NCBI GenBank assembly: GCA_965198005.1
Contig: CBDAOI010000004.1
Coordinates: forward strand, 192,001-256,000
DNA length: 64,000 nt
Reading direction: 5' to 3'
Origin: Spirochaetia bacterium
Lineage (GTDB): Bacteria > Spirochaetota > Spirochaetia > SZUA-6 > Bin103
In this document: one piece after another, positions 5,294-47,972 of the stretch
Position numbering within the stretch: the first letter of the stretch is position 1
Layout of the letters: every line of letters begins with the position of its first letter
The notes under the pieces: generated by a model
The model's input: only the letters and a program-made list of their open reading frames with translations
Databases searched by the model: none
What the model was told of the DNA's origin: nothing
Translations under genes and position numbers: made by a program

Positions 5294-5299
5294 GTGGGC

Positions 5300-8440: not shown

Positions 8441-8493
8441 CCGCAGCGCGGCGTGCTTGCGCCATGAACCACTCCGTGGTTATAGTATGAACC

Positions 8494-8748: not shown

Positions 8749-8754
8749 TATCCC

Positions 8755-9654: not shown

Positions 9655-9910
9655 GCAGGATGACGAGCCCGGCGATGATGCTCAGTGGCTTCTCCTTGAC
9701 CAGCCTCGCAAGGAAATCAGTCATAGCGAACCCTGGGGTCCAAGACAGCGTAGATCAGATCGATCATAAGATTGATCCCCACCACCCCAGTGGCGAAGAA
9801 CAGGTTGATTCCGGAGACCACGGCGCCCCCGACGAGGATCGGCAACTGCAGGCCGATCAGGGACACCACCGGGATCAGGGCATTCTTGACGGCGTGTCGG
9901 ATCACGACCG
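9655..9910 (-). pseudogene. Inverted remnant of a dppB 3' end / dppC 5' start
   Basis: VIRHAVKNALIPVVSLIGLQLPILVGGAV joined to VSGINLFF...LDPRVRYD (~29 codons deleted), then MTDFLARLVKEKPL; highly similar to 1896-2225. Confidence 0.85.
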
Positions 9911-10797: not shown

Positions 10798-10991
10798 TAC
10801 GGCCGGCGGCCATGCCTGTCCGCCACCTGCATGCCGCCTCGTCGGGCACATCGGGCACGATCACTCTGCGGGCGGTGGATGAGATCCTCGCTGCGGTTCC
10901 GGAACGAACCGTTCCCGAGTGGGACCGTTTGCCGGACACGCGTTCCTGAGCCGAGCAACGAGGTCGCCACACGCCGGCTGCGCGGGCGAGG

Positions 10992-11925
10992 TCAGCCGTC
11001 CTGGTCGCGGAATCGCCGGAGCGCGGCAAGGAATTCCGCCCCATCCGCGCAGCCAAGCGCCGCCGCCAGCAGCGCCTCCTCGGACGCCGCGGCGAACGCT
11101 TCCGTAGCGGTGGAGAACCTCGCCGACACTGCAATGCCGCGTGATTGCAGAATCTGACGGACCATCTGCGCACGACCTTCCGCACGGCCCTGCTCGAATC
11201 CCTGGCGCCGCTGCGAACGGAGCAGCGGATCGTCGTCCGGGCCGGTGCCTGCGCGCGCGCGCGGACGGCGCCGGCTCGTTCAGCGCCAGGTGAATCTCGT
11301 CCGCCCGCCAGCCGGGAAACGCCCGGCTCTCGGCCGCCACCCGGAACCGACCATGCTCCAGCAGATGAATCGTCAGTCCCGGGCGGCGCCCGCGTGCCCG
11401 CCTCGGCGACAGCGTGTCCGGCACCTCCACCCACACTTCCGGAAAGCCCCAGTCCTCGTACAGCGCCAGCTTGCCCCGCCGCGCGTCCGTGGTGTGATCC
11501 ACCTCCAGCACCACGTCGGGGAAGTCGTCCTCGCCCACCACCATGGCCGCCGGCCCTGGCTTGGCCCGCGCCGGATGCAGGTACACCGACTCGTCCGCCT
11601 GCATGATGCGCCGCGGCTCGCCGCCGGCGTCGCGCAGCAGCAGGTCCATCGAGCCGTAGCATTCGGTCGGTGAACCGCGCACCGTGGCGATCAACTCCGC
11701 CAATCTCGTGAACAGCCGCGACGGGCGCTCGTGATAGGGAGTGGTGGGCTCGCAGATCCAGGCGGTCTCGGTGGCCGCATCCCAATACTCGAGGCGCCCC
11801 TCGAAGCGGTCGATCTCGGTGCGCGGCAGGCGGACGGGCTTGCAGCCCGGGAATGCCGGCGGCTGGGCGTGCCGGGGTTGCGCTACTTCGTACCGCCTGG
11901 TTGGCGGTGCTTTGGTGCCGGCCAT
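10992..11925 (-). pseudogene. Uma2 (PD-(D/E)xK) family endonuclease, interrupted near the 3' end
   Basis: QADESVY...PDVVLEVDHTTDARRGKLALYEDWGFPEVWV; probable C-terminal helix at ~10992-11140 separated by unrelated sequence. Confidence 0.75.
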
Positions 11926-12494
11926 GGCGGCAGCGTAGGCCAGCTCGCGCGGGCCTGCAGGGCCGGCGGGCCGGACCCGCCGGCCCTTCGAAAGCGAAGC
12001 GATCGAGACCGAGGCAGTTGCCGGCAGTGCCGTGGCGGACTCTGGCGTGACCGGGCGGGCTTGGTGGTGCAGCCGCCAGCGGCGCCAGGGCCGCCGGAAA
12101 AAAGTGAAGAAAGTGCAATTGAGCGCTTGATCGCTTTGGCGCGGGTGTGCGATGGTGTCGGGGTTGGGGACTCGAACGGATTACGGATGATGCCTGACTA
12201 CGCAATGCAGCCCTGCCACCGGCCAGACCCGTTCACGCCGCCGACCGGCGTCGACCTGCGTCTGACCGGTACGCATACAGGAGGTGCCCGTGAAGCTGTA
12301 ATCCACCGCGGGACGCGATCAACGCAGTTGCGCCTGACCGCCCCCCGGGGTCAGTTCGAGGTTGTCGCCCTCGTTGGAACCGCCTGCACCGCACACTACA
12401 CAGAGCGGCAGACAGGCAACGAGAGCAGGCGAGGGGCCGGCACGAATATCAGCACATGCTCTCGAACGAGAATCGAGAATCGGAGGTTCTTCTC

Positions 12495-14270
12495 ATGAAC
12501 TACGTTTCCAAAATCGGTTTACTGACACTGGCGCTCGCGCTGGTGGCTACCGTTACGTTTGCCGCCGCCGAGGGCGAGGAGGCTGCCGCGGCCGAGAAGG
12601 AGATGGTGCTCGATCCATCCACCGGCGAGATGGTGGAGGCGCCGCGGTATGGCGGGACCCTCAGCTACGCCCGACCCGGAGCCGCTGAGCATTGCGATGT
12701 CTGGTCGATCAGTGGCTTTGCAACCTTTTACATCGGCCCGGTAGTCGAGAAACTCGTCATCGGCGACTGGGCGATTGGCAGGAGCGAGCATAACTGGCGC
12801 AGCTATAACGTGCCGTTCTCGGTCATGCGAGGACAGTTGGCGGAGAGTTGGGAAACGCCGGACGACACCACGATCATCGTCAAGGTCCGCCCGGGCGTTT
12901 ACTGGCACGACAAGCCACCGATGAACGGTCGGGAGCTGACCGCCAGCGATATCGAGTTCAACTATCATCGCCTCTTGGGGCTCGGCAGCGGCTTCAGCGA
13001 ACCCACGCCGTTCAGTTGGACGCTCCCTGCCGTCACATCCGTGACGGCCACCGACAAATCGACGGTAGTCTTCAAGCTGACGAGGCCGGACCTCTTTGGG
13101 GTGCGCAAGGCATTCGACACGTGGGATACGTGGATCTACCCTCCGGAGGTCATCCAGCAACACGGCGACATAAAGGATTGCAGGAATCTGGTGGGTACCG
13201 GGCCCATGGAGCTGACGGACCTCGTGGAAGGCAGCTCCATGACGTGGACCCGGGTTCCCGACTACTGGGGGTTCGACGAGAAGTTCCCGGACAACCGCCT
13301 GCCCTACGTCGACGAGCTGAACGCCCTGATCATGCCGGATGCGGCGGCGCGGATCGCGGCCCTGCGCTCGGGTCAACTCGATATGTTGGCGACTTTCGGC
13401 GACTCTCAAATGAGGTCACTCGACCAGGTGGAGAGCCTGCGCCGGACCGATCCCGACATCAGGATGTGGGAGATCGCGTTTCGGTCCGACAACGCATTCT
13501 CGTTCGTAAACCAGCAGAATCCACCTTTCGATGACATCCGGGTGCGCCGCGCCATGCAGATGGCTCTGGACCCGGAGACGATTGCGAACACCTACTTCAA
13601 GGGTATGGCCGATCCGACGCCGCAGGGAATGATCCACAGCGACAATGTCGGGACTGGCACGCCGTTCGACGAGTGGCCGGAGGAGGTCAAGCAGTACTAC
13701 CGCTACGATCCGGAACGGGCCAAGCAGCTTCTGGCCGAGGCGGGCTATCCCGATGGCTTCAAGACCCGTCTGGACTATGGGAATCGCTTCGATGCGAACT
13801 ACGCAGAGCTCGTCATTGGCTACTGGGGTGAGATTGGCGTCGACGTCGAGCTGTCCGTTAAACCCGGGCCGGAGATGGTAGCCATCCAGCGGGGGCATAC
13901 CACGGACGGAATGATGCACTTTTCCAGCGCTGCCACCTATGCCGATGCCGGCACGCTTAAGGCGGTTTTCACCTCCGGCTCCACCAGCAACTTTGGCAAC
14001 ATCAACGACCCGGATTTCGACGCTCTGATCGAACGCGCGGAGGCAGCCGCGACGCTGGAGGAGCGGAATCGGCTCACCAAAGAGGCGAATCTGTACGCCA
14101 TAGCCCAGCACTGGGAAGCCGTGGGTCCGACCAGCCCACAGTTCAACGTCGCCCAGCCGTGGGTCAAAGGCTATAACGGGGAGATATCGCTCGGCATGCA
14201 GGGCCAGTTCTTGACGCTGACGGCCCGCGTCTGGATCGATCAGGATCTGAAGCGGGATCTCGGATTCTGA
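12495..14270 (+). CDS. ABC transporter substrate-binding protein, family 5, intact
   Basis: RBS GGAGG; signal peptide; LAESWE, LVGTGP, DIRVRRAM motifs; ends RVWIDQDLKRDLGF. Confidence 0.94.
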   Translation: MNYVSKIGLLTLALALVATVTFAAAEGEEAAAAEKEMVLDPSTGEMVEAPRYGGTLSYARPGAAEHCDVWSISGFATFYIGPVVEKLVIGDWAIGRSEHNWRSYNVPFSVMRGQLAESWETPDDTTIIVKVRPGVYWHDKPPMNGRELTASDIEFNYHRLLGLGSGFSEPTPFSWTLPAVTSVTATDKSTVVFKLTRPDLFGVRKAFDTWDTWIYPPEVIQQHGDIKDCRNLVGTGPMELTDLVEGSSMTWTRVPDYWGFDEKFPDNRLPYVDELNALIMPDAAARIAALRSGQLDMLATFGDSQMRSLDQVESLRRTDPDIRMWEIAFRSDNAFSFVNQQNPPFDDIRVRRAMQMALDPETIANTYFKGMADPTPQGMIHSDNVGTGTPFDEWPEEVKQYYRYDPERAKQLLAEAGYPDGFKTRLDYGNRFDANYAELVIGYWGEIGVDVELSVKPGPEMVAIQRGHTTDGMMHFSSAATYADAGTLKAVFTSGSTSNFGNINDPDFDALIERAEAAATLEERNRLTKEANLYAIAQHWEAVGPTSPQFNVAQPWVKGYNGEISLGMQGQFLTLTARVWIDQDLKRDLGF

Positions 14271-14294
14271 GCGAATTGCGACTCCACGAGCCGC

Positions 14295-14316
14295 GAGCCC
14301 GCCTGAGGGCGGGCTC
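14295..14316 (+). terminator. Stem-loop after SBP gene
   Basis: GAGCCCGCC-TGAG-GGCGGGCTC. Confidence 0.6.
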
Positions 14317-14382
14317 CGCTGCCACATGACAGAGTGGGACGGCGGCGTGTGCTGCCGTCCCACTTTCGAGACCCCCTGCAAA

Positions 14383-15348
14383 ATGCGAACGTACATCATC
14401 CGCCGCGTCCTGCTGCTGATCCCGACGTTCCTCCTGTTGACGGTTCTGGTGTTTCTCTCGGTGCGCTTTCTTCCCGGCGACGTCATTGACGCCATGATGG
14501 ACCGGCTGGCGAGGAGCGAAGGCGGGATGGCGCACTTCGACCGCGAGAGGGTCGAGCGCATTCTCGGGCTGGATGTGCCAGCGCACGTGCAATACGTGCG
14601 CTGGCTGGGCGGCATCTTCCTGCACGGCACCCTGGGTGAGTCACTCCTCGGCGGAGTTGCAGTCGAAGAAAAGATCATCGGCCGGCTGCCGATCACCGTC
14701 GAGTTGGGTGTGCTGTCCATCCTCATCGGGTTGGTCATCGCCGTGCCGGTGGGCATCTACTCTGCGGTGCGGCAGGACACGGCAGGCGACTACGCCGGCC
14801 GCTCCATCGCCATCATCGGCCTGGCGACGCCCAATTTCTGGCTCGCCACCATGGTGCTGACCTTTCCCGCGATCTGGTGGGCGTGGGCGCCGCCGCTGCG
14901 TATGGTGGCGTTTGTCGATGATCCGATCCGGAACCTCAGCCACATGCTTATTCCCAGCCTCATTCTGGGCACCTACCTGTCGGCGACCGTGATGCGCATG
15001 ACGCGCACCATGATGCTGGAGGTGCTGCGCCAGGACTTCATCCGCACCGCCTGGGCGAAGGGACTGAAGGAGCGGGTGATCATCCTCCGGCACGTCATCA
15101 AGAATGCGCTGATCCCGGTGGTGACCCTGATCGGCCTGCAGCTCCCGATCCTGGTCGGCGGCTCGGTGATCATGGAGAACATGTTCGCGCTGCCGGGGCT
15201 GGGCCGTCTGATGCTCGACGCGCTCTCGGCGCGCGACTACCCGGTGGTGTCGGGCATCAACCTGTTCTTCGCGACCGCGGTGATGACGATCAACCTGATG
15301 ATCGACATTCTCTACGGCTACTTGGACCCGCGGGTGCAGTACCGGTAG
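14383..15348 (+). CDS. Peptide ABC transporter permease (DppB/OppB type)
   Basis: Third paralogue, MRTYIIRR...LDPRVQYR. Confidence 0.92.
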   Translation: MRTYIIRRVLLLIPTFLLLTVLVFLSVRFLPGDVIDAMMDRLARSEGGMAHFDRERVERILGLDVPAHVQYVRWLGGIFLHGTLGESLLGGVAVEEKIIGRLPITVELGVLSILIGLVIAVPVGIYSAVRQDTAGDYAGRSIAIIGLATPNFWLATMVLTFPAIWWAWAPPLRMVAFVDDPIRNLSHMLIPSLILGTYLSATVMRMTRTMMLEVLRQDFIRTAWAKGLKERVIILRHVIKNALIPVVTLIGLQLPILVGGSVIMENMFALPGLGRLMLDALSARDYPVVSGINLFFATAVMTINLMIDILYGYLDPRVQYR

Positions 15349-22854: not shown

Positions 22855-24075
22855 ATGGCCGAGGTCAAGCCGATCCGAACGGAGTCGGACTACGTAGCCG
22901 CGCTGGCCCGAGTCGACGAGCTGATGGATGCCGAGGTGGGAAGCCCGGAAGGGGAAGAGCTGGATGTTCTGGTCGACCTGGTCGAGCTGTATGAGAGCAA
23001 GCACGTGCCGATTGACTACCCCAGCCCCATCGCCGCGATCGAGTTCCGCATGGACCAGGCGGGTCTGGCGCCGCGCGATCTGGTCCCGTTCATCGGCAGC
23101 CGCGCCAAGGTGTCGGAAGTCCTGTCCGGCAAGCGCGCAATCACCATCCAAATGGCGCGTGCGCTCCATGAGCATCTGGGGATCTCCGCGGAGGTGCTGC
23201 TGCAGAGGCCGGGGTCAACTGCCGATCAGCGGCTGGACCAGATCCAGTGGAGCCGGTTCCCCCTCAAGGAGATGGCCAAGCGGAAGTGGATTCCGGACGT
23301 CCCTGACTTGGCGCAACGGGCGGAGGATCTGATCCGCGATCTGATCGACCGTGCCGGCGGTTGGCAGGTCGCCCGAGCCGCCTTGTACCGCAAGAACGAC
23401 CACCTGCGTACGAACGCCAAGACCGACCCTTATGCACTTGACGCTTGGTGCTGGCAGGTGCTGGCGACGGCCAACGGCAACCCGTCCGAGGCCGCGTACG
23501 CCCCCGGCACCGTCACGTTGGGGTTTCTCAGGCACGTAGCCCGGTTGAGTTGGCTGGAGGACGGCCCGCTTGTCGCCCAGCAGTTACTAGCGCAGCACGG
23601 GATCCCGTTGGTCATTGAGAGCCATCTGCCCCGTACCTGTCTCGACGGAGCCGCGCTCCGCCTCGGCGACGGCCGGCCGGTGGTCGCGCTCACCCTCCGC
23701 TACGACCGAATCGACAGTTTCTGGTTCTGCCTGCTCCACGAGCTGGCGCACGTAGGCCGCCACTTGGGCCAAGACACCGGAACCGCGTTCGTAGATGACC
23801 TTTCTCTCCGCAGACCGGAACGGGGATTGGAAGACGAGCGCGAAGCAGAAGCCGACGCATGGGCAGCCGAAGCGCTCATCCCCGGCGCGGAGTGGGAAAC
23901 CAGCCCGGTACGGACGAACCCGACCCCCTTGGGCGTCATGAGTCTCGCCCACCACCTGCAGGTGCACCCCGCCACGGTCGCGGGCCGGATCCGGTTCGAA
24001 CGCCAGGACTATCGCCTGCTCTCCCAATTCGTCGGCACCGGCAAGGTCCGCCAGCATTTCGGCCGAACCCGATGA
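22855..24075 (+). CDS. HigA-like HTH antitoxin fused to ImmA/IrrE metallopeptidase domain
   Basis: KPIRTESDY...VSEVLSGKRAIT (HigA/HTH); FWFCLLHELAH (HExxH); EAEADAWA. Confidence 0.88.
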   Translation: MAEVKPIRTESDYVAALARVDELMDAEVGSPEGEELDVLVDLVELYESKHVPIDYPSPIAAIEFRMDQAGLAPRDLVPFIGSRAKVSEVLSGKRAITIQMARALHEHLGISAEVLLQRPGSTADQRLDQIQWSRFPLKEMAKRKWIPDVPDLAQRAEDLIRDLIDRAGGWQVARAALYRKNDHLRTNAKTDPYALDAWCWQVLATANGNPSEAAYAPGTVTLGFLRHVARLSWLEDGPLVAQQLLAQHGIPLVIESHLPRTCLDGAALRLGDGRPVVALTLRYDRIDSFWFCLLHELAHVGRHLGQDTGTAFVDDLSLRRPERGLEDEREAEADAWAAEALIPGAEWETSPVRTNPTPLGVMSLAHHLQVHPATVAGRIRFERQDYRLLSQFVGTGKVRQHFGRTR

Positions 24076-24504: not shown

Positions 24505-25569
24505 TTGGTGTACGGTCAGTGCCGCGCATCATGCTGTCACGACAAGCCCCGACGGCTATACTCCGTGGTCGTGCGCCACTCCTGTCCGCTCGATCCGTTT
24601 GTCCCCGAGTCGCTTCGCTGTCTGTCGGATCCGGCACGCGATCTTCCGCGCTTGGCGAAGAGCCGGTCGGCGGTTGCGGCGATCGAGGCTGCCGTGGTCG
24701 AGGTTCCCACGCGGCACCGGCTACTGCTCGGCGACGCCCGGCGCGCGTCTCTGCCCGCCGGGTCGGTCCAGCTCGTGGTCACCTCGCCGCCGTACTGGAT
24801 TCTCAAGGAGTACCGCCAGGCCGACGGCCAGTTGGGGTGGATCGAGGACTATGAGGAGTTTCTCAGTCAGCTCGACCAGGTGTGGCGCATGTGCTACACG
24901 GCACTGGTGCCGGGGGGACGGCTCGTATGCGTTGTCGGCGATGTTTGCCTTGCGCGGCGCAAGAACCGCGGCAAGCACACGGTCGTGCCGTTGCACGCTT
25001 CGATTCAGGAGCACTGCCGGGAGATTGGCTTCGACAACCTGGCGCCGATCATATGGAGCAAGATCGCCAACGCGGCCTACGAGGTAGAGCGCGGCACCGG
25101 TGGGTTCCTGGGCAAGCCCTATGAGCCCAACGCCGTAATCAAGAACGACGTCGAATTCATCCTGATGCAGCGGAAAGGAGGCGGCTACCGAAAGCCCGGC
25201 CTTGCTGCAAGGATACTCAGTCTGCTATCGGAGCCCTCCTTCAAGCGGTTCTTTCAACAGATCTGGACCGACATCCCGGGTGAGTCGACCCGCGACCACC
25301 CGGCCCCCTATCCGGTTGCCCTGGCGGACCGGCTGATCCGGATGTTCAGTTTCGTCGGGGATACGGTGCTCGATCCGTTCAACGGAACAGCGACCACTCA
25401 GGTCGCGGCTGCGGCGTGTGGCAGAAACAGCATCGGCATCGAGGTAGACCCCGTATACTTCGCAGATGGGCTCGACCGTCTACGCCGCGAAAGCGGCGGT
25501 CTTCTGAGCACGGCCCAAGTGTCCACCGGCGAGGTGGGCACCCGTAGCGGCCTCCCCGCCACGGCGTAA
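24505..25569 (+). CDS. DNA amino-methyltransferase, beta-class order (N4-C/N6-A)
   Basis: VTSPPY (motif IV) precedes HPAPYP and VLDPFNGTATT (motif I); start uncertain. Confidence 0.9.
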   Translation: MVYGQCRASCCHDKPRRLYSVVVRHSCPLDPFVPESLRCLSDPARDLPRLAKSRSAVAAIEAAVVEVPTRHRLLLGDARRASLPAGSVQLVVTSPPYWILKEYRQADGQLGWIEDYEEFLSQLDQVWRMCYTALVPGGRLVCVVGDVCLARRKNRGKHTVVPLHASIQEHCREIGFDNLAPIIWSKIANAAYEVERGTGGFLGKPYEPNAVIKNDVEFILMQRKGGGYRKPGLAARILSLLSEPSFKRFFQQIWTDIPGESTRDHPAPYPVALADRLIRMFSFVGDTVLDPFNGTATTQVAAAACGRNSIGIEVDPVYFADGLDRLRRESGGLLSTAQVSTGEVGTRSGLPATA

Positions 25570-27905: not shown

Positions 27906-28793
27906 TCAGCGGTCGGGTTGGTCCTTGATGCGCACCATGATGCGCCGGTGCGTAGTGTCGCGCCGCACGTCGAACGCATCGCCGCGGGCCGCGATCAGCC
28001 TGGACAGCTTCGACGCTCCGAAGCTGCGCGGGTCGAAGGCGGGGTCGAGCTTGGTCAAGTTGTTGGCGATCTTGCGCAGGTCGACCCACGCCGACTCCTG
28101 GTCCACCATCTCGTGCGCCTCGATGATGGTCGCGATCAGGTCCTGATCGTCCACCGCCGCGGGATCGACGCTTAAGCCGTCACTTGCGGTGCCGGCTCCG
28201 GTGCCGGCTCCGGTGCCGGAGCCATCGCCGGCCCCCGCTCCATCGCCGGCTCCCGCTCCATCGCCGGCGGTGCCAGCTCCATCGCCAGTCTCGCCGGGAC
28301 CCTCGCGCCGCCGCGTGCGCCGCCGGCGGCTGTCCCCCTGGTAGGTCTTCATGATGTTCTCGACGTAGCGAAACTCGTTGCAGGCATTGACGAACGGCTT
28401 GGGGGTGTGATTCTTGCCGATGCCGATAACCTCCATCCCCGCCTCGCGCAGGCGGATCGCCAGCTTGGTGTAGTCGCTGTCGCTGGACACGATCACGAAT
28501 CCTCCGACGTGATCGCTGTAGAGGATGTCCATGGCGTCGATGATCATGGCCGAGTCGGTCGCGTTCTTGCCGACCGTGTTGCGGAATTGCTGGACCGGCT
28601 GGATCGCGTGGACCGGCAGTTTCCTTTTCCATGATTCGAGCTGGTTCGTGGTCCAGTCGCCGTAGATCCGGCGGATGGTCACGACGCCGAACTTCACGAC
28701 TTCCTTCATGACGAATTCGATTTGCGTTGCCTGCGCGTTGTCGCCGTCGATCAGGACGGCAAGGCGGCGCTCGGCGCCGGTACTGGTGTTCAT
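27906..28793 (-). CDS. NYN (LabA/DUF88) domain protein with C-terminal OST-HTH
   Basis: LIDGDN, GKNATDSAMIIDAMD, SSDSDY, FDPRSFG; Gly/Ala/Asp repeat linker. Confidence 0.88.
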   Translation of the reverse strand: MNTSTGAERRLAVLIDGDNAQATQIEFVMKEVVKFGVVTIRRIYGDWTTNQLESWKRKLPVHAIQPVQQFRNTVGKNATDSAMIIDAMDILYSDHVGGFVIVSSDSDYTKLAIRLREAGMEVIGIGKNHTPKPFVNACNEFRYVENIMKTYQGDSRRRRTRRREGPGETGDGAGTAGDGAGAGDGAGAGDGSGTGAGTGAGTASDGLSVDPAAVDDQDLIATIIEAHEMVDQESAWVDLRKIANNLTKLDPAFDPRSFGASKLSRLIAARGDAFDVRRDTTHRRIMVRIKDQPDR

Positions 28794-28872
28794 AAGTTGT
28801 CCCCTCTCGGTAAGTGTACCCGGCGGCCGGGTGGCCGTGCACCGCGGCCGCTGCCGGGCGGCAGGGTTGTAT

Positions 28873-29649
28873 TCAGCCCTGGTCGGTCGCACCGCCCGGC
28901 CCGTCGCCGTGGCGGTTGATGATCTCGATCTGCACGGCTCCCGAAGCGCGTGCAATATACTTCGCGAATGCCGCCACCCGATAGCCGCGGTCGAGCAGCC
29001 GCCAGAGCCGGCGCACCGCCGCCGCGGGGGTGTCCGGCAGCGGCAGCAGGAACGGCTCACCGGTGAACGGCGGCAACGGCGTGCCGTCGCCATCATAGGT
29101 GGTGATGCAGTGGCCCCACCCCGGCCGCGCTCGGCGGTACGCGTAGTGCTGGAAGCTCACCTGCCGCGGGTCGTTGGCGGCCGTCTTGATGATCGCCAGC
29201 TCGTACCCGCCGCCGCCCGGCACCGTCACCATCCCGGCGATGCGCGGCGTATAGTGCGGGGGGTCGGGCTCCACGTCCCGGCGCGCGAAGGCCGCCGTGA
29301 ACGAAGTGCCGCGCGCCAGCCCGTCGGCGATGGTGGCGGTCTGGTCACCGTTGCCGACCACGTGCGCCGGCCCCACTACTACGGTCGCATCATACAGGAT
29401 GAGACGGGGGTCGATCTCCCCCGCGGGTGACGAAGGCGCTGCCGGCACCGCCGCCGGGTCCGCGACCACGACCCGGACCGAGCCGTCCTCCCGCAGCGCA
29501 AAGCGCCGTTGCTGACTGCCCGCGCTGCGGCCCATGATCCAGTAGAGCTGGACGCTGGATGCACCGTCGGCACTGCAGCCGATTACCAGCCCGCGGCCGG
29601 GGTACGCGGTATCCGCCAGCCAGCTCTGATCCTTCACGCCCGCCAGCAT
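28873..29649 (-). CDS. Stand-alone IMP cyclohydrolase (PurO-like, Ntn fold)
   Basis: YPGRGLVIG, YWIMGRS, VGNGDQT, EPDPPHYTPRI; adjacent to purM. Confidence 0.8.
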   Translation of the reverse strand: MLAGVKDQSWLADTAYPGRGLVIGCSADGASSVQLYWIMGRSAGSQQRRFALREDGSVRVVVADPAAVPAAPSSPAGEIDPRLILYDATVVVGPAHVVGNGDQTATIADGLARGTSFTAAFARRDVEPDPPHYTPRIAGMVTVPGGGGYELAIIKTAANDPRQVSFQHYAYRRARPGWGHCITTYDGDGTPLPPFTGEPFLLPLPDTPAAAVRRLWRLLDRGYRVAAFAKYIARASGAVQIEIINRHGDGPGGATDQG

Positions 29650-29708: not shown

Positions 29709-31337
29709 GTGGGCAGCCGTGGAACCGCCGAGCTTTACAGCGGATTCGCCGCCGGTTTACCGTCGCGCCGTGATCTCGTCCGCCAACCGACCGCGGCACG
29801 CGCCGCAGCAGCCGCCAGCGGCAACGCCGGCAGCGCGGCCCGTTCCGGCGTGAGCTCGAACTCGGCCGCACCGGCCTCCGCGCCCGTGCCCGCGCTGCCG
29901 CCCGTGCCCGCGCCGCCGACCGCCGACCGTGCGTACGCCGCCGCGGTCCGGCGCCTGCTCGGCCTGACCGACTTCAACGCCGCTGGCAGCGCCGCTCAGG
30001 CCGAGCGCCAGCGGTACCGGAAGCAGCGTATGCAGGCACTGCTGGAGCGCCTCGGCAACCCCCATCTTGCGGTCCCTGCGATCCACCTCGCGGGCACCAA
30101 CGGCAAGGGCTCGACCGCGGCCATGATCGCCTCGATTCTCAGCCATGCCGGACTCCGCGCGGGGTTGTTTACCTCGCCGCACCTGCACTCCTTCGTCGAA
30201 CGCATCCGCCTCGGGCTGCGACCGATCAGCCGGGGCGACTTCGCCACCCTGTTGGCGCAGGTGTGGCCCCAGGCGCAGGCGCTGGCACGCAGTTCGCACC
30301 TGCCGGGGGCGGCCGGCGCGGTCACCACGCTCGAGCTGCTCACCGCGATGGCATTCCAGTACTTCCGCGCGGCGGGCGCCCACTACCAGGTGATCGAGGT
30401 GTTCGTCGGCGGGCGCGACGACACCACCAACGTGGTACACCCCGCGCTGGCGGTGATCACCAACATCAGCCGCGACCACCTCCCGGTCCTGGGCAGGACG
30501 CTGCTGGACGTGGCGCGGGCCAAGGCCGGAATCATCAAACGCGGCGTGCCGGTGGTAGTCGCCCCGCAACGGCCGCTCGTGCGCAGGTGTCTGGCCGCCA
30601 CCGCGCGGGAGCAGGCGGCGCCGCTGATCGAGGTGCCGCGCCGTCCGCAGGCGGCGCTCCCGGCGAGCGACCCGATCATGCACCCTTGCCAGGACCTGAG
30701 TTGGCACGGCCGCCGCGGCCACTACCGCGTGGCGCTCCCGCTGCGCGGCCGCGTGCAGCGGGAAAACGCCGCGCTGGCGATAACCGCAGCCGAGTGCCTC
30801 ATGGACCACCCCGGCGGCGGCGGCATTACCCGTGCCGCGGTCCACGCCGGACTGGCAAACGTCTCCTGGCCCGCGAGATTCGAACTGCTGCAGCGCGCGC
30901 CGGTCACCGTAATTGCCGACGGCGCGCACTGCCCGCGCGCCATGCGCTGTCTGGTCAGCGACCTCAAGCGGCTGCAACCTGAACGGAGAATCGTCGCCCT
31001 GGTCGGCGCGCAACGCGGGCACGACGTAGTGCCCACGCTCCGCCTGCTGCACCCGCTGGTGAGCCGGATGATCGTGACACGGTCGCATCACCCGCGCGCC
31101 GTGCCGGCAACCGAGCTGGCTGCGGCGTTGCACACGGGAGGCGTGACGGCTCAGGCCACAACGCTGCCGACGGCCGCCGCCCTGCGCCGGCTGCTTGGGG
31201 ATATGTCTGCCGGGGACCTGGTGCTGGCCACCGGTTCATTGTCCGTGGCGGCCGAAGCGCGCGAGGCGCTGCAGCCCGAGATCGAAGCCGACTGGCGCTT
31301 GCCCGCCGCGGGCGGGCGGAACGCGCCGGTCAGGTGA
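29709..31337 (+). CDS. folC: Folylpolyglutamate/dihydrofolate synthase
   Basis: HLAGTNGKGST, FTSPHL, GGRDDTTNV, WPARFE, DGAH, TGSL; true start probably downstream of 29709. Confidence 0.9.
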   Translation: MGSRGTAELYSGFAAGLPSRRDLVRQPTAARAAAAASGNAGSAARSGVSSNSAAPASAPVPALPPVPAPPTADRAYAAAVRRLLGLTDFNAAGSAAQAERQRYRKQRMQALLERLGNPHLAVPAIHLAGTNGKGSTAAMIASILSHAGLRAGLFTSPHLHSFVERIRLGLRPISRGDFATLLAQVWPQAQALARSSHLPGAAGAVTTLELLTAMAFQYFRAAGAHYQVIEVFVGGRDDTTNVVHPALAVITNISRDHLPVLGRTLLDVARAKAGIIKRGVPVVVAPQRPLVRRCLAATAREQAAPLIEVPRRPQAALPASDPIMHPCQDLSWHGRRGHYRVALPLRGRVQRENAALAITAAECLMDHPGGGGITRAAVHAGLANVSWPARFELLQRAPVTVIADGAHCPRAMRCLVSDLKRLQPERRIVALVGAQRGHDVVPTLRLLHPLVSRMIVTRSHHPRAVPATELAAALHTGGVTAQATTLPTAAALRRLLGDMSAGDLVLATGSLSVAAEAREALQPEIEADWRLPAAGGRNAPVR

Positions 31338-31512
31338 TGTCAGTGTCTCGTACGGTCTTCCGCTTGGCCTCGCGGGCGTTCTCCATCGCCTCGTCACACA
31401 CCGCGCGTACCTTGTCGGATAGTGCCTCCGCGACCGAGGCAGCAGTATTCATTCCACCCGCAGTCTTGATGTAGTCCTTGACTTTAGATGTAACGATCAG
31501 AATGTCTGCCAT
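31330..31512 (-). CDS. Bacterial histone-fold protein (Bd0055/HBb-like)
   Basis: 60 aa; ILIVTSKVKDYIK...MNTA...EALSDKV...AKRKTVRDTDI; strong RBS AAGGAG. Confidence 0.88.
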   Translation of the reverse strand: MADILIVTSKVKDYIKTAGGMNTAASVAEALSDKVRAVCDEAMENAREAKRKTVRDTDIT

Positions 31513-31690
31513 GCTAGCTCCTTTTGGAAGATTGGCCTTACTGTATCAAGAACCGCCAATCGCGTCAGTCCTCGCGTGCAGACTCAGCAATTCCTGATGG
31601 CCGAACCGGAGAGAAACTCCGTAACTTGTTTGATAACATATTGTTATGAAGCTCCTGATTCAAGCGCCGCCCGCCGATTATCCGGTCGCG

Positions 31691-32098
31691 ACCATGGCGG
31701 CCGCGCGGCGGAGGCGCTCGCGGGCGCCCTGCGGCAGCAGGGCGAGTTGCGACACCTTGGCGCCGGCGAACAGCATCGCCCGCGGGCCGCGGCGCGGGGT
31801 GACCGTAGCGGCCATTGATCAGCAAGCCGCAGCTGCCGCAGATCCGCAGGTCCCTTATGGCAGTCGTGCGCCTGGAGCGCGCCGCAGCTACACGTGATGG
31901 GAGCGGCAGGATGGCGGCGCGGAAGGGGCGTGATCGGAATCGGCGGGCGCGAGCGAGCTCCCCGCCGGGTAACTGCCGATGTGGGGGGCAGCACGAAGTA
32001 GCCGTCCGCCAGCCCCGACATCAGGGCGCTGGGCCGAGCGGGTTGGCGCCGTGGTCGGAAGAGTTGGCCTCGCCGAGCACCAACAGCCCAGGCACCGA
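31691..32098 (-). pseudogene. Condensed, partly inverted, diverged copy of sdhB/sdhA segments
   Basis: 31691-31778 matches ~35398-35485; ~31781-31804 is inverted ~35760-35783; ~31808-31845 matches ~35787-35824; ~31913-32098 matches ~36512-36699. Confidence 0.88.
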
Positions 32099-32148
32099 CT
32101 GTCAGGTGTTTGCGTGAACCACCATAGTCTCATACCGTGTGCCAGCCG

Positions 32149-32525
32149 ATGAGCTACCGCGAGCCCCTACCGGAAGGATGTCCACCCGATGAGGCAGAAG
32201 AGATCAACACCCAACGGGACGTGTTCCGCTTGGTGCGGGACAGAACGCCGACGGAGGAGGATTTCAGGTCACAGCGCGCGGAGAGACCGGGCCGTACATT
32301 CCGAGGTGTCACCGAATGCCAGGCAAGCGGGTTGTCTGTGCACACCGATCGTCGCGATACCGAACGGCGCTGAAGATTCCCAGCCTGCGCGGGCGCTTTA
32401 TCTGTCGACTACGATTGGAAGCAGGCGCGGGTAGGATTCAGCAGACGGGAGCGCCCTCCCATCACACTTGGTGGCCGCTGGCGGATTTTGATATTCTGAG
32501 TCGTTGTAAAGTGGAAGGACCATGA
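32149..32525 (+). pseudogene. Small hypothetical protein with a single frameshift near 32368
   Basis: PLPEGCPP..VFRLV..DFRS..CQASGLSV, then LKIPSLRG...SHHTWWP in the next frame; ATGA overlap with the next gene. Confidence 0.65.
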
Positions 32526-33667
32526 AGGTAGTCAAGGCAGCGAGCATACTCTACTACTACGACGGCCCTCAGGTGATCGAGGCTCGCGACACCATCGGTG
32601 GACACTATATTGCAGTGATGGTAGCCCCCGAGGAGAAACACGATCGCTACCTTGTGACTGGCGTTGCCCCGGAGCGGCTGCGCCAGTTTCGATCCGGCAG
32701 GCTCGACTTGCGGGCGCTGCTGGCCGAATCGGACACGGGCGAGTGGTTTATCGGGTCGGCCCCGGCCGGCCCGGACCAGCTCATGGCGCTCGAGGCGCAG
32801 CACACATCCCTCGTTCACAGCGGATTGCTGCCCGACGGTGGCTTCATGTTGCATGACCGGCCCTCGGACGATCTCGCACTGAATGAGGCTCGCTTGCGTA
32901 ACAACTTGGTGATAGAGGTCACTACCGACCCTCCAGAGGCTACACAAGGGCATCGTATCCGAGTAGGTGCGCTCACCGGGCTGCTGAGTCACTTTCAATC
33001 CATGGTCACTCATGCTTATCGCGCCGCTTTCCGAGACCTGTCAACTAGTACTCGGCGCAACATCGATTCGGAAGATGCTCATCTGATGGATGTCGTAGTC
33101 CCTGCTGCCGCGGGTTCATTTCGTGTTGTGCTGGAGGCATCTCAAGAGCCAGACCTGTTTGGCCTTCGCGACCTGGCGCGTGCTTTACAACGAGTCGATA
33201 TGCTCTTCGAGCATACGGATGATCCGCAGCAGTCGCTCATTTCCTTGAAGCAACATCGTGGACATCTGGCCGGATCCTATCTGCGACTCGTCGGCTTCCT
33301 CCTACAACACAAGATGAGTTTCAGCTATTCGTGGGCACAGCCAACGTCAGTAAAGGCCAGCTTCCGATCTGTATCTGAGTCTCAGGCACAGTCACTCGTG
33401 GAAGTTCTTTCGGAAGTATCGAATCTCGGTAGCGAGTCAGTCACGCTTGTCGGAGAATTCGAGAAAGTGAACCGCGGTATAGGGTCCTGGGGATTGCTGA
33501 CGAAAGATGGAGTGCACTCTGGTAGGGTGAAGGATGGCGGGCCAAGTTTGAATGGTCTGAGAGTTGGACGGAGTTACAGATTTATCTGCGCCGAGGAAAT
33601 AGAGGAAGTCACAGGTACGGGTCGCGAATCTCGCACGCTATACTTGAATGAATTCGAACCAGCATGA
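32522..33667 (+). CDS. Hypothetical protein, DUF6575-like N-terminus
   Basis: 381-aa ORF, lower GC; ILYYYDGPQVIEARDTIGGHYIAV. Confidence 0.7.
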   Translation: MKVVKAASILYYYDGPQVIEARDTIGGHYIAVMVAPEEKHDRYLVTGVAPERLRQFRSGRLDLRALLAESDTGEWFIGSAPAGPDQLMALEAQHTSLVHSGLLPDGGFMLHDRPSDDLALNEARLRNNLVIEVTTDPPEATQGHRIRVGALTGLLSHFQSMVTHAYRAAFRDLSTSTRRNIDSEDAHLMDVVVPAAAGSFRVVLEASQEPDLFGLRDLARALQRVDMLFEHTDDPQQSLISLKQHRGHLAGSYLRLVGFLLQHKMSFSYSWAQPTSVKASFRSVSESQAQSLVEVLSEVSNLGSESVTLVGEFEKVNRGIGSWGLLTKDGVHSGRVKDGGPSLNGLRVGRSYRFICAEEIEEVTGTGRESRTLYLNEFEPA

Positions 33668-33937
33668 CCCTCAATGCTTCCGAATGGCTTAAGCGATTGG
33701 TACGCAAAGGATACTCCCAGGAGGCCTCCCGGTGGGAGAACCCTCAGCCTGGCCCGTACCCGATGGGAAACGAAACCAAATGAATGCGATGACGATGCAA
33801 TAGAGAGAGTAGGCCACTATGCTCCAACGGTGCGTGAAATCCCGAATATAGATCACGAACAGCTTCGAGGGAAGACTGGCGCTCCCATTACCCATTCCAT
33901 CGCGGTTCCTCCAGAGTAGCGGCGGCGCCGAGTGGCG

Positions 33938-34498
33938 TCAGCAACCCGGGAGCAGTGGGCGCGGTTTCGTTTGCAGGTCGCAGTCCTTCACCCCGTCGAT
34001 GTTGACGGTATTCCACCCCAACACCCCGGTCAGGTTGGCGGCATACAGGTTTGCGCCGCTCAGATCCGCATCGGTCAGATTGGCACGGCTCAGGTCGGCA
34101 ACACCCAACAACGCGAACTCAAGGGACGCGCCGGTCAGATCAGCGTCGGTAAGGTTCACCTCCCACAGACTTGCCCCGCTCAGCACGGCACCGCGCAGGC
34201 TCGCTCCGCTCAAATAAGCGCGGGTCAGAACGGCGAAGGTCAGGTTGGCACCAGACAGATCGACACGGAGCAGATTTGCCCCGATCAGGTCTGCGCCGAT
34301 CAGGTTCGCGTCGCGCAGGATTGCGTCGTCCATAATCGCGCCGTGTAGATCGGCGCCGCTCAGGTCCGTTCCGATCAGGATCGTTTCGCTCAGGTACGCG
34401 CGTGTCAACTCTGCATCGCTCAGATCGGCCCGGCTCAGGTCGGCCCGGTCGAAGTCGGCACGGGTCAGGCCTGCACCGCTCCGATCCACACCCGCCAA
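33938..34498 (-). CDS. Pentapeptide repeat protein (possibly a fragment)
   Basis: Continuous A(D/N)LxG/R repeats. Confidence 0.85.
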   Translation of the reverse strand: MAGVDRSGAGLTRADFDRADLSRADLSDAELTRAYLSETILIGTDLSGADLHGAIMDDAILRDANLIGADLIGANLLRVDLSGANLTFAVLTRAYLSGASLRGAVLSGASLWEVNLTDADLTGASLEFALLGVADLSRANLTDADLSGANLYAANLTGVLGWNTVNIDGVKDCDLQTKPRPLLPGC

Positions 34499-34499
34499 G

Positions 34500-35255
34500 T
34501 CGCGAATTGAATCGCTCCATCGTAGTCAGCCTTCGAGTAGTTGAAATGGTACTCTTTATCCAACGTACTAGCTAGATCGTGTATCGTATCGGACATGTTT
34601 TTTCGATTCTGTAAAGCGAAGTGTGTGAGCTCGAATACAAGATTGTAGCGTGACGTACCGTTGGGATTGAAGTTAGTCACTAGATCGATGAGCTTCTTCT
34701 TGCACCGGTCAATCCGATCTCTGTCGCGAATGAACAGTGCCATTCGATATGCAGCTACGATTGCCTGTGTTACCAACAGTCCGAAATCATGATTCGGATA
34801 GATGGCGTCCTGGTTCACGTAAGAATCAACACACTGCAAGTAGGAATCGACCGCTCGCCGTGCATGTGCCACCGTCCGCTCTGCTGCCGTCCACAAAACG
34901 TGGGCGTATCGCGCAACAAGCGTGGGATTATTAGTCCTGCTAAGTCGATGATTCAAGTACGAACGATGTTGCTTTTGGAACGTCATAGGATCCGGCCATT
35001 CAAAGGAATTGCCGTCTTTGTCAGTTCCGGAGAATGGGCCTACCAAGTCGCCATCTTGAAGATCGAAGTGCAGCGCATCGACTTCGATCTGAGCCAGATG
35101 CGCTTCATCAGTCTCGCCGGCGGCGTAAAGCCTGTCGCGAGTGTTCTGCGCAATCTCGCCAAGTGACTGGATATGCGGGAACTCGTGGGCGTGAGCGTCC
35201 GCGTAAGCTTCGAAATCGCTTAGTCGGTCGAAAGTGGGTAGGTCCGAACTCTTCG
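34500..35255 (-). pseudogene. N-terminal part of a large helical protein (DUF4209-associated type), truncated
   Basis: Low-GC open frame YLNHRLSRTNNPTLVARYAHVLW...AVDSYL; no clear start; runs into the pentapeptide ORF. Confidence 0.45.
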
Positions 35256-35261
35256 TTCGGG

Positions 35262-36005
35262 TCAGGGGGTGAGCTTGGCGGCGAGGAATTCGCGGTTGAG
35301 GCGGGCGATGTTGGCGAAGGAGATCTCCTTGGGGCAGTCGCCCTCGCACTCGCGCTCGTTGGTGCAGGCGCCGAAGCCCTCGGCGTCCATGGCGGCCACC
35401 ATGGCGGCGGCGCGGCGGCGACGCTCGGGGGCGCCCTGCGGCAGCAGGGCGAGTTGCGCCACCTTGGCACCGGCGAACAGCATGGCCGCGGCGTTCTTGC
35501 AGGAGGCGACGCAGGCGCCGCAGCCGATGCAGGCGGCGGCGTCCATCGCCTGGTCGGCGTCCGCGCGCGGCACCGGCAACGAGTTGGCCTCCGGCGCGCT
35601 GCCGGTGTTGACCGAGATGAAGCCGCCGGCCTGAATCACGCGGTCGAAGGCGGAGCGGTCCACCACCAGGTCCTTGAGCACCGGAAAGGCGCGCGCCCGC
35701 CACGGCTCCAGCACGATCCGTTCGCCGTCGTGGAAGTGGCGCAGGTGGAGTTGGCACACGGTCACCCCGCGCCGCGGCCCGTGGGCGCGGCCGTTGATCA
35801 GGAAGCCGCAGCTCCCGCAAATCCCCTCGCGGCAGTCATGCTCGAACGCCACCGGCTCCTCGCCGGCACGCTCCAGCCGCTCGTTGAGGACGTCGAGCAG
35901 CTCCAGGAACGACATGTCGGGCACCGCCTCGTCCATCTCGTAGCTCACGAAGCGGCCGGCGTCCCGCGGCCCCGACTGGCGCCAGATCTCCAGGTGCAGT
36001 TTCAT
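35262..36005 (-). CDS. sdhB: Succinate dehydrogenase/fumarate reductase iron-sulfur subunit
   Basis: [32 protein letters not shown]. Confidence 0.95.
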
Positions 36006-38740: not shown

Positions 38741-40081
38741 TCACGGCGCCCGGAGCTCTACCGCGGTTTCATATAGCCTCGTACGTTGGTGCACGGTACC
38801 CACACGTACTGAAGAGTTGACGATACTGTTGCCGGTTCGTTTGCTTCGCACTTCGTGCAGTTCGACAACCTTGAATCCTTCTCTTTCGGCGATTTCCGCG
38901 AATAGTCGGTCCGTTTGAAACTCCATGCCTTGGAGGATGTTGTTTCCGATGACGACGACGACGGTACTACCGGGACGCATGCGAGAAAGTGTAAGGGCAC
39001 AGAAACGCTGACAGTCATTGAAGTAGGCGGCAGCGTAGTTGGCCCACCCTGCGCCACCGTAGGCACCTTTCTCCGGATGTAGCGCCCTCAGTTCCTCCAA
39101 TTGTTTGGCCAAGTGGTCGAGCGGTGGCTCAAGGGCGATTTCCGGACCGGATCGCACGGTCTGCCAGAATTGACCGAAGTTCTGCTGTTCCATTGTCTTC
39201 AGGTTGCTGGCCTCCTTGGTCATTCCCAACCAGAAGAGATGCGGGCGAGTATTCCTGATGTAATGATAGTTGTTCAGATATGGCGGCGAAGTGATAAGCG
39301 CATCGATGCTGCGCGCCTCCGTTCTCTGCACATGATCGAAGTATGACAGTGGATGGACTATCGCCCGCGGTACTTGTTCGTGTTGTTTCATCCAACCCTG
39401 AAACGTAACGATGTCATCACGCATTCCCAACAGCTTTCGGCGTACTATACCGAACACGTCGGCATGCTGGATAGTGGGTTTTCCGGCGCCGGCTCGCGTG
39501 CCGAGACTCGGCTCATAGGAGTAGTTGGAAAAACTCACCATCACCGAACCAAAGGCCACACGAAACAGGTCCATTACCCATGCTTTGGTACGTTGCATAA
39601 TGAAATCCATGCAGGCCAATACTTGTCGTTCTACGTCGTCGCTGAAGAACGGAACGCGACTCCGAAAGCCGCCGGGGCGTTTGGAAGATGGATTGATTGT
39701 CAACCAGGATTCGTCGTCACCATAGTCCTCGAACTGAGTGATTGAAGTCTCGAATTCGGCCACGTCGTATCGATTGGAAGCGGCCTTGACTCGGCAGGCA
39801 AGCGCAGCGTACGGGTTGATTTCGTAACCAACGGCGTCGTCGCCTTGTTTGAGCGCTTCGATCAGCGTGGTGCCGACTCCCGCAAACGGATCCAGAACGC
39901 GCATCCTGCGGCGGCGGGTCCGTACGCGGTCGAGCACGTCGGCTACGAACGATCCCGAAAATCCAGCGATCCACGGGACCCAGCGATGCAGAGTTCGATC
40001 ATGGTTCTCGGCAAACGCCGTGTCCCGGAATGTCGCCGCTTCCGGCGCAGCAAGCGTCGGCAGGCGGGTCCGGCTCACCAT
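38741..40081 (-). CDS. DNA amino-methyltransferase, alpha-class order (likely N4-C)
   Basis: VLDPFAGVGTT (motif I) before ITSPPY (motif IV); lower GC than flanks. Confidence 0.88.
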   Translation of the reverse strand: MVSRTRLPTLAAPEAATFRDTAFAENHDRTLHRWVPWIAGFSGSFVADVLDRVRTRRRRMRVLDPFAGVGTTLIEALKQGDDAVGYEINPYAALACRVKAASNRYDVAEFETSITQFEDYGDDESWLTINPSSKRPGGFRSRVPFFSDDVERQVLACMDFIMQRTKAWVMDLFRVAFGSVMVSFSNYSYEPSLGTRAGAGKPTIQHADVFGIVRRKLLGMRDDIVTFQGWMKQHEQVPRAIVHPLSYFDHVQRTEARSIDALITSPPYLNNYHYIRNTRPHLFWLGMTKEASNLKTMEQQNFGQFWQTVRSGPEIALEPPLDHLAKQLEELRALHPEKGAYGGAGWANYAAAYFNDCQRFCALTLSRMRPGSTVVVVIGNNILQGMEFQTDRLFAEIAEREGFKVVELHEVRSKRTGNSIVNSSVRVGTVHQRTRLYETAVELRAP

Positions 40082-40234
40082 GCAGAGGGAACTATCTTCG
40101 CTCATATTCCCGTAAGCTATCTCAATGGTTACACAGATGAACGTCAAGGCCTCGGCCAGCGCAGGATCTCTGCAGGGGAACTATCTTCGCTCATATTCCC
40201 GTAAGCTATCTCATGGTTACACAGAGGTCAAGGC
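40081..40234. repeat. Imperfect tandem duplication (~65-70 nt unit, 90-nt period)
   Basis: GGGAACTATCTTCGCTCATATTCCCGTAAGCTATCTCA occurs twice (copies begin 40081 and 40171). Confidence 0.93.
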
Positions 40235-46881: not shown

Positions 46882-46940
46882 GGGTGAAAACTAATCTAAC
46901 GAACGGCGCGGGTTTGTCAAGCGGTACTTGAGCAGTGATC

Positions 46941-47972
46941 ATGGGAACCATGCCGACTCCCCCGCCGGTACGCTTCTACGCCCATCCGCTGTGCGCCGGC
47001 CATGAGGCCGGCCCCGGCCACCCGGAGCGGCCGCAGCGCATGGCCGCGGTCGCCGCGGCGCTGGCGCGCGCCGACCTCACGGACCGGCTGCAGGTGTGCC
47101 AGCCGGCGCCCGCCCCGCGCGCCGCCCTGGAACGGGTGCACGCCGCCTCCTACGTGGAGCTGATCCTGGGCCTGCGCGGCCACAGCCGCCGTCTGGACGC
47201 CGACACCAGCGTCGGGCCCGGCAGCGTGGCGGCCGCGCTGCATGCCGCCGGCGCCGCCCTCGAAGCGACCGCGGCGGTGCTCGGCGGCGCCGCGCGCACC
47301 GCGTTCTGCGCCGTACGTCCGCCGGGGCACCACGCCGAGCGCGACCGCGCGATGGGGTTCTGCCTGTTCAACAACGTGGCGGTGGCGGCCGCCGCCGCGC
47401 TCGCCGGCACGCTGCCGGCGCCCAATCCCGGTGCCGCGACCCCTCCCGCCGCCACTCCGCCCGGCCGCGCCTCCACGCCGGTGCAACGGGTGCTGATCTT
47501 CGATCCCGACGTCCACCACGGCAACGGCACCCAGCACGTCTTCTACGCCTCCGCCGCGGTGCACTACGTCTCCATCCACCAGTACCCGTTCTATCCCGGC
47601 ACCGGTGCGGCGCGCGAACGCGGCGTCGGTGCGGGGGCCGGCTACACCCTGAACGTGCCGCTGCCCGCCGGATCCGGCGACGACGAGTATCTCGCCGCGA
47701 CCGAGCGACTGGTCCTGCCGGAGGTGCGGGCGTTCGCCCCGCAACTGGTCATCTTCTCGGCCGGCTTCGACGCCCACCGGCGCGATCCGCTGGCGATGAT
47801 GCGGGTTACCACCGCCGGCTTCATGAGCATGTACCGGCTGCTGCTGGACGAGCTGGACCGGTCCCGGATCCCGCACCTGTTCGTGCTGGAAGGCGGGTAC
47901 AGCCTGCCGGCCCTGGAAGAGTGCGCCGCCGCCCTGCTCACCGAGCTGACCGACCGGTACGCGCCGCGGTGA
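46941..47972 (+). CDS. Zn-dependent deacetylase (HDAC/AcuC family)
   Basis: HPERPQR, RPPGHHA, GFCLFNN, DVHHGNGT, SAGFD, LEGGY. Confidence 0.92.
   Translation: MGTMPTPPPVRFYAHPLCAGHEAGPGHPERPQRMAAVAAALARADLTDRLQVCQPAPAPRAALERVHAASYVELILGLRGHSRRLDADTSVGPGSVAAALHAAGAALEATAAVLGGAARTAFCAVRPPGHHAERDRAMGFCLFNNVAVAAAAALAGTLPAPNPGAATPPAATPPGRASTPVQRVLIFDPDVHHGNGTQHVFYASAAVHYVSIHQYPFYPGTGAARERGVGAGAGYTLNVPLPAGSGDDEYLAATERLVLPEVRAFAPQLVIFSAGFDAHRRDPLAMMRVTTAGFMSMYRLLLDELDRSRIPHLFVLEGGYSLPALEECAAALLTELTDRYAPR

Follow-up and report, generated by a model that had tools for sequence, protein, structure and literature searches.

A 60-codon gene convergent on folC encodes a bacterial histone, probably of the HBb type, in a high-GC lineage labelled Spirochaetia

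In a genome recorded as a Spirochaetia bacterium (assembly GCA_965198005.1, contig CBDAOI010000004.1), a short open reading frame (ORF) runs into the 3' end of folC from the opposite strand, raising the question of whether this lineage carries a histone and, if so, of which type. We analysed 64,000 nucleotides of this contig (positions 192,001 to 256,000 of the forward strand, hereafter the window), in which an original prediction, made from the letters alone, had read the ORF as a nucleoid histone related to Bd0055 of Bdellovibrio and to the Leptospira histone. Our analyses indicate that 31330-31512 is a genuine, selected gene for a bacterial histone of the HBb (Bd0055) type.

31330..31512, minus strand: histone gene, coding sequence of a 60-residue alpha3-truncated (HBb-type) histone-fold protein, stop codon included

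The motif on which the prediction was built is present, with VTSKVK at residues 7-12, M21-N22-T23, L31-S32 and R51-K52-T53-V54...D58-I59. Among the Pfam models, CBFD_NFYB_HMF (PF00808) matched residues 26-59 at 24.4 bits against a gathering cut-off of 21.4 (E 3.6e-5), and the core histone and TAF models scored under their cut-offs. The sole histone model of NCBIfam, archaea_histone (NF043032), gave 25.9 bits against a cut-off of 50, and the NCBI pipeline would therefore leave the protein unnamed by this model. Against the PDB, the single sequence was most similar to HBb/Bd0055 (8FVX and 8CMP; phmmer, 41.8 bits, E 7e-10, ungapped over residues 1-59), followed by HLp of Leptospira perolatii (9QT0; 38.1 bits, E 1.1e-8), archaeal HTkC (9F2C; 20.9 bits, E 0.0037) and HMfB (15.5 bits, E 0.21). 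A profile of the 51-member clade described below gave 63.9 bits for HBb (E 1.3e-16), 51.6 for HLp, 26.9 for HTkC and 20 for HMfB (E 0.0066). The proposed histone identity is thus borne out by the hidden Markov model (HMM) search and by significant similarity to Bd0055/HBb and HLp, that to HMfB being weaker.

Structure prediction points the same way. The AlphaFold2 model, built on a 24-row alignment (mean predicted local distance difference test score, pLDDT, 88.1), has helices at residues 2-19 and 26-48, followed by a single helical turn at 56-58, an architecture of helix, loop, long helix, loop and one-turn helix. When this model was compared with the PDB using Foldseek, the top five matches were all HBb chains (template modelling score, TM, 0.85-0.88; 44-45% identity), and these were followed by HLp (TM 0.81-0.87), HTkC and then many eukaryotic or archaeal histone-fold chains; every match above rank 10 was a histone-fold protein. 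The histone fold, on whose presence the original prediction had staked itself, is therefore seen both in the model and in its structural matches. A homodimer was also predicted, with a score of 0.90 against 0.00 for the best of three controls, 100% contact agreement between runs and a partner pLDDT of at least 94; among solved structures, 20 of 30 one-chain pairs and 1 of 23 single chains attained this mark. The predicted contacts are of the handshake kind (35:35, and 22-24 with 53-54). As the HBb and HLp dimers have already been solved, this pass may mirror likeness to known structures rather than give independent proof.

The residues of the RD clamp and of the RKT loop 2 (R-x-T-x-x-x-x-D), namely R51, K52, T53 and D58, are invariant in the 51 clade members and in the wider 24-row alignment. 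Alpha3-truncated histones are described by Schwab et al. (2024, PMC11390915) as having a helix 3 of 3-4 residues and a helix 2 about 4-5 residues shorter than that of nucleosomal histones. In the window protein, helix 3 comprises residues 56-58, the chain ends at residue 60, and a gap of 4 residues separates it from an archaeal nucleosomal histone in the alignment. It shares the histone fold, the RKT loop and the RD clamp with archaeal HMfB (1A7W; TM 0.71), whereas archaeal nucleosomal histones have a helix 2 about 4 residues longer. With its helix 3 reduced to one turn, this protein cannot build the four-helix-bundle tetramer interface found in hypernucleosomes.

The gene is also well conserved. 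A homologous-protein search returned 52 proteins including the window's own, the other 51 being 40-73 residues long and 72-93% identical to it; precomputed PF00808 annotation was found on 27 of the 52. When 51 of them were aligned, 22 columns were invariant, including N22, T23, R51, K52, T53, V54, R55 and D58. Compared with the orthologue at locus L001, one of two closely related loci (L001 and L002) discussed below, the proportion of nonsynonymous differences (pN) was 0.069 and that of synonymous differences (pS) 0.572, so the reading frame is maintained as coding under purifying selection. An exhaustive search of representative proteins extended the family to 482 members at E <=0.001, among them tandem doublets and proteins that begin with a cysteine-rich domain. 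Among the best-scoring relatives (P0053-P0064) were tandem double-histone proteins of 126-162 residues and proteins of 216-274 residues in which a cysteine-rich N-terminal domain is fused to two histone folds; neither form is present in the window, and their counterparts in the classification of Schwab et al. are the doublet and ZZ-type histones (PMC11390915).

Which type of alpha3-truncated histone does the gene encode? The 'bacterial dimers' represented by HBb have been reported to bend DNA as dimers (PMC11317129), while Hocher et al. describe end-on DNA coating by HBb instead (PMC10627809). Face-to-face HLp has been reported to wrap about 60 bp of DNA as a tetramer, which rests on R49 and N53 (PMC12701072), and Schwab et al. 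give the lack of R48 and N52 (HMM-logo numbering) as the distinguishing mark of bacterial dimers (PMC11390915). In the window protein, R49 and N53 of HLp align to N45 and A49, so that the Arg/Asn pair of the face-to-face type is missing; among the 51 clade members, N45 does not vary and A49 is kept in at least 90%. Ten important DNA contacts have been listed for HBb (N22, R57, S9, T53, T8, S24, K10, K12, K52 and K16; PMC11317129), and eight of them are kept here (T8, S9, K10, K12, K16, N22, K52 and T53). Since the face-to-face residue pair is gone and eight of the ten HBb contacts are kept, we assign the protein to the alpha3-truncated bacterial dimers. The helix 1 lysines and S-K motif described for bacterial dimers (PMC10627809, PMC11390915) are represented by S9, K10, K12 and K16, each conserved in at least 90% of the clade. 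The HBb-type category was defined by CLANS clustering, for which PDB match, clade profile, structure and tree served as stand-ins in this study: HBb was the best PDB match by single sequence, clade profile and structure, and the tree placed the clade among HBb-type singlets on a long stem of its own. The original prediction had seen one pattern common to Bd0055 and the Leptospira histone. The MNT loop motif within it, however, is common to HBb and missing in HLp and therefore favours the HBb (dimer) type over the Leptospira (tetramer) type.

A closer comparison with HBb (8CMP, 8FVX, 9EZZ and 9F0E) extends the likeness from overall length, ungapped alignment and identity to the T-S-K start of helix 1, K12, K16, the M-N-T loop 1, the R-K-T loop 2, the R51/D58 clamp, the short helix 2, the one-turn helix 3, the handshake dimer (predicted here) and the absence of the face-to-face residues. 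Among the differences, M55 and R57 of HBb are replaced by R55 and T57, which moves the arginine two residues earlier, and D49, which reinforces the clamp in HBb, is A49. HBb also has a few extra C-terminal residues, and its host belongs to the Bdellovibrionota, whereas the closest records of the window are labelled Spirochaetia. HLp (9QT0-9QT2) shares the alpha3-truncated fold (43% identity), the S-K-V-K motif of helix 1 and, with its arginine at the position of R55, a loop 2 and helix 3 that end in V-R-x-T-D; in addition to the missing Arg/Asn pair, the window protein differs from it by a loop 1 that is one residue longer and carries M-N-T. No sign of the tetrameric wrapping reported for HLp (PMC12701072) was seen here. 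Judged by its residues, the window protein belongs to the HBb type but ends, in loop 2 and helix 3, like HLp.

The putative signals around the gene, and the folC that it faces, are as follows:

31518..31525, minus strand: Shine-Dalgarno-like AAAAGGAG, read from the sequence; its GGAG is separated from the ATG by 5 nt

31540..31568, minus strand: promoter-like CTGACG-17 nt-TACAGT, 8 of 12 matches to the sigma-70 consensus, putative function

29709..31337, plus strand: folC, folylpolyglutamate/dihydrofolate synthase (NCBIfam TIGR01499, 323.7 bits against a cut-off of 162.65; Pfam Mur_ligase_M and Mur_ligase_C)

In the ORF list of the window, the histone frame consists of an ATG start, 60 codons and a TGA stop, and this ATG is the earliest start downstream of the in-frame upstream stop. 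With AAAAGGAG 5 nt (from GGAG) before the ATG, the strong ribosome-binding site (RBS) of the original prediction is confirmed; GGAG also stands 5' of the orthologues in L001 and L002. Its placement of the gene, convergent on and overlapping the end of folC, is equally correct, the shared 8 bases (31330-31337) being the 3' end of a gene that matches TIGR01499 FolC. The promoter-like site has a TG one base ahead of the second hexamer, its pattern CTGACG-17-TACAGT is unique within the 64-kb window, and it aligns with stronger sites at the two orthologous loci. These read CTGACG-17-TATAGT in L001 and GTGACG-18-TATAGT in L002; each was called at 9/12, the threshold of the promoter scan, and each is the one called site upstream of its gene. 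No minus-strand terminator was found downstream of the histone gene in the scan, and an Rfam search of the entire window gave no matches. A short palindrome, ATAACA-ATA-TGTTAT (31633-31647, minus-strand reading), lies in an AT-richer stretch some 65 nt before the promoter-like -35 hexamer; it is missing from the aligned upstream regions of L001 and L002 and could be an operator or chance.

Taken together, these data make it likely that the gene encodes a minimal alpha3-truncated histone of the bacterial dimer (HBb/Bd0055) type that acts as a nucleoid-associated DNA binder. Two chains would interlock in the histone handshake, and the dimer would offer its paired L1-L2 loops (N22-T23 with K52-T53) to the phosphate backbone at the minor grooves of DNA, which the N-terminal turn of helix 1 (T8-S9-K10), together with K12 and K16, would also face. 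Binding would be without sequence specificity and, by analogy with HBb, the protein would bend DNA or coat it as tightly packed dimers. What our data show is the ORF, its conservation under purifying selection, its place in the family, the fold and dimer predicted for it and the lack of the face-to-face residues; DNA binding itself, the bending or coating, abundance and the nucleoid role are inferred.

Several observations weigh against this view. The window copy has a net charge of 0 and an isoelectric point (pI) of 6.15, against clade medians of +3 and 9.25, and a net charge of 0 is low for a general DNA binder; the differing residues, at positions 13, 17-18 and 48, are not among the listed DNA contacts. 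Two of the ten HBb contacts are changed (S24 to A24 and R57 to T57), and R57 is reported as the second most frequent DNA contact in HBb simulations (PMC11317129). In addition, the promoter scan of the window gave no call, the promoter-like site, at 8/12, being below threshold. Finally, G+C at third codon positions (GC3) is 0.67 in the histone gene against 0.87-0.94 in folC, htpG, sdhA and a tRNA synthetase gene of the window, so that the gene does not have the codon bias of those genes. The neutral charge, the loss of the R57 contact and the lower GC3 would suit a histone-fold protein with no global chromatin role, a low-abundance and specialised DNA- or protein-binding factor, and Schwab et al. 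caution that prokaryotic 'histones' need not all organise genomes (PMC11390915). However, eight of the ten contacts and the RKT loop vary little or not at all among the 51 clade members, the rest of the clade is basic, the gene stands alone, with a promoter-like site of its own and a strong RBS, and HBb and the histone of L. interrogans are reported to be highly abundant (PMC10627809). A specialised factor is thus unlikely in our judgement. The short length of 60 residues, the overlap with the folC 3' end and the silent promoter scan might even suggest a chance ORF or an unexpressed dead remnant. This explanation is hardly credible: the E-values of the family matches (Pfam, PDB and clade profile), the Pfam score, the 51 homologues of comparable length and the pN/pS contrast go far beyond chance, the gene has an intact start and RBS, and its place beside folC is kept in two other genomes. 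The PDB match, the homologues and the pN/pS effectively refute it.

A different objection concerns the type. The protein might be a functional face-to-face histone like HLp, its dimers pairing into a closed tetramer with about 60 bp of DNA wrapped around it, by way of contacts other than the canonical Arg/Asn pair. Its L2-alpha3 segment, V54-R55-D56-T57-D58, is nearer to V-R-P-T-D of HLp than to V-M-A-R-D of HBb, T61 of HLp, which aligns to T57, is reported to lie in the HLp tetramer interface (PMC12701072), and the structural match to HLp almost equals that to HBb. Nevertheless, N45 and A49 replace the face-to-face pair throughout the clade, and the clade profile places HBb 12 bits above HLp, which leaves such a tetramer improbable. 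The same C-terminal signature also allows a less conventional proposal, that the clade is an intermediate bacterial histone type with a DNA-binding geometry or higher oligomers of its own. The clade ends in V-R-D/G-T/S-D-I/V, with arginine at 55, as in HLp, and not at 57, and lacks the face-to-face Arg/Asn pair; on this view the charge-neutral window copy could even be a form adapted to weaker or regulated binding. This is a long shot, though a conceivable one, and a bacterial dimer of the HBb type is the reading we retain.

The distribution of the gene was surveyed by a genome-contig scan, from which the best 80 of at least 540 confirmed loci (on at least 600 stretches) were taken, so that the taxonomic spread is a sample. 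By record title, these best 80 loci were distributed as follows:

Bdellovibrionota: 34 of 80 loci
Myxococcota: 19 of 80 loci
Planctomycetota: 7 of 80 loci
Spirochaetota: 5 of 80 loci
Gemmatimonadota: 3 of 80 loci
Nitrospirota: 2 of 80 loci
Pseudomonadota: 2 of 80 loci
Thermodesulfobacteriota: 2 of 80 loci
Binatota: 1 of 80 loci
no phylum label: 5 of 80 loci

None of the 80 carried two histone domains at one locus. The histones of L001 and L002 are 90% identical to that of the window, and the next locus among the 80 is at 63%. Both lie on chromosomes of about 5.0 Mb titled 'MAG: Spirochaetia bacterium', with a locus G+C of 0.69-0.72, and the host genome of the window has about 67-72% G+C; the label Spirochaetia of these closest records rests on their titles. 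Synteny with both loci extends on the folC side over folC, an IMP-cyclohydrolase-like gene and an NYN-domain gene, with purM in addition in L001 (the window PurM had no match in the L002 locus), and stops at the histone promoter region.

A quick maximum-likelihood tree of 91 rows combined the window protein with the 80 locus domains and with 10 proteins picked by hand from the 50 other aligned clade members; it had SH-aLRT support only and 60 columns, too few for deeper relations. The window, L001, L002 and the 10 proteins formed one clade (support 96, stem 0.51), nested in a weakly supported group of mostly Myxococcota-labelled rows. For the Spirochaetaceae-labelled, high-GC loci L006, L010 and L046 and the Planctomycetales-labelled L014, the histone was the sole element shared with the window, and their histones fell into other clades. 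The first three (G+C 0.69-0.72, titled 'uncultured Spirochaetaceae') carry another histone type that ends in V-L-D-R-D and groups with Myxococcota-labelled sequences; either two histone types are present in these lineages or some bin labels are unreliable.

The base composition of the locus is also distinctive. G+C falls to 0.52-0.62 over 31300-31700, compared with 0.70-0.74 in the flanks, and is 0.56 in the histone gene itself. Recent horizontal transfer of the gene was considered on this ground and rejected, because the orthologues in L001 and L002 have the same dip, with GC3 values of 0.72 and 0.82; an older transfer may have taken place.

Concerning the neighbourhood, the real start of folC is probably downstream of 29709, as the family match starts at residue 106. 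Adjacency to folC was considered as a general feature of the histone and discarded, since it was seen in just 2 of the 80 loci, L001 and L002. The window contains no second histone-fold ORF: a six-frame segment search with the profile gave one match, with the next best at E 2. On the far side of folC, an NYN ribonuclease domain is fused to OST-HTH/LOTUS via a Gly/Ala/Asp/Thr-rich low-complexity linker (27906-29096, minus strand), in a gene kept beside purM in L001 and beside the IMP-cyclohydrolase-like gene in L002 (66-71% identity). A lower-G+C stretch at 32100-35300 (0.44-0.66 against about 0.70-0.78 around it) starts upstream of the histone promoter, at a distance of a few hundred bases and at the break in synteny with L001 and L002, and is probably an inserted island. 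It carries a 381-residue protein with a weak DUF6575 match (32522-33667, plus strand), a pentapeptide-repeat protein (33938-34498, minus strand), whose best NCBIfam matches are HetL/Qnr-like and all under cut-offs, and small ORFs.

Further away, a 345-residue protein with a Pfam Hist_deacetyl match (E 2.3e-88) is encoded at 46935-47972 (plus strand), about 15 kb from the histone gene; it has no NCBIfam match, and no tie to the histone was seen in the window. Deacetylase-like enzymes of this kind are widespread in bacteria. Two adjoining ORFs of 316 and 415 residues (56159-58366, plus strand) match the BREX BrxC/BrxD ATPase family (E 2.8e-9 and 1.4e-22) and may be a split or duplicated defence ATPase; they lie directly 3' of a respiratory cluster with a Rieske protein, a split cytochrome b and a 975-residue multihaem cytochrome c. 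Two N6/N4 DNA methylase genes stand on either side of the region (24505-25569, plus strand, and 38741-40147, minus strand), which, with an IrrE/M78-like peptidase ORF that scored under cut-off (22855-24075, plus strand), hint at remnants of restriction-modification systems or mobile elements. At the start of the window (29-15348), three gene sets for peptide-type ABC transporters encode SBP_bac_5 binding proteins and permeases, with a PIN-domain ORF (8755-9156) and a Uma2-like ORF (10861-11925) between them; short SBP_bac_5 ORFs, e.g. one of 186 residues at 3452-4012, suggest fragments or pseudogenes.

The family, its spread over bacterial phyla and one member of the same clade had already been published, and the current picture is unchanged by our data. 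An entry for 'Spirochaetaceae bacterium bin103' (GCA_002238925.1) stands in Supplementary Table S1 of Hocher et al. (2023); it gives the protein MPNH01000014.1-34 and is the only row of that table with the loop-1 motif of the clade. This 60-residue protein is identical to that of L001 and 90% identical to the window copy, from which it differs by six substitutions that make it basic (pI 8.9 in the table) where the window copy is neutral; it appears as a census entry without experiments. The literature search, to which most subscription journals were out of reach, found no paper characterising a member of the clade. The suggestion that no histone may be characterised in this lineage therefore stands as far as experiments are concerned, but not as regards cataloguing, given the entry in Table S1 and the name 'histone H3/H4' that the Joint Genome Institute (JGI) has given to 8 of the 52 homologues. 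The further suggestion that so short a gene could be missed or left unnamed by annotation is plausible from the NF043032 score.

With a near-identical relative catalogued and the spread of the family published, the gene is a sound but ordinary addition to a known family. The recognition of bacterial histones as chromatin proteins dates only from 2023-2025, and the proteins studied so far are limited to HBb and two from Leptospira. With the gene described here they gain a well-supported member outside Leptospira, in a high-GC lineage for which the closest records bear the label Spirochaetia. Its clade is tightly conserved (72-93% identity over 51 proteins) and has its own C-terminal signature, which makes it a reasonable candidate for probing how DNA binding varies within the HBb type.

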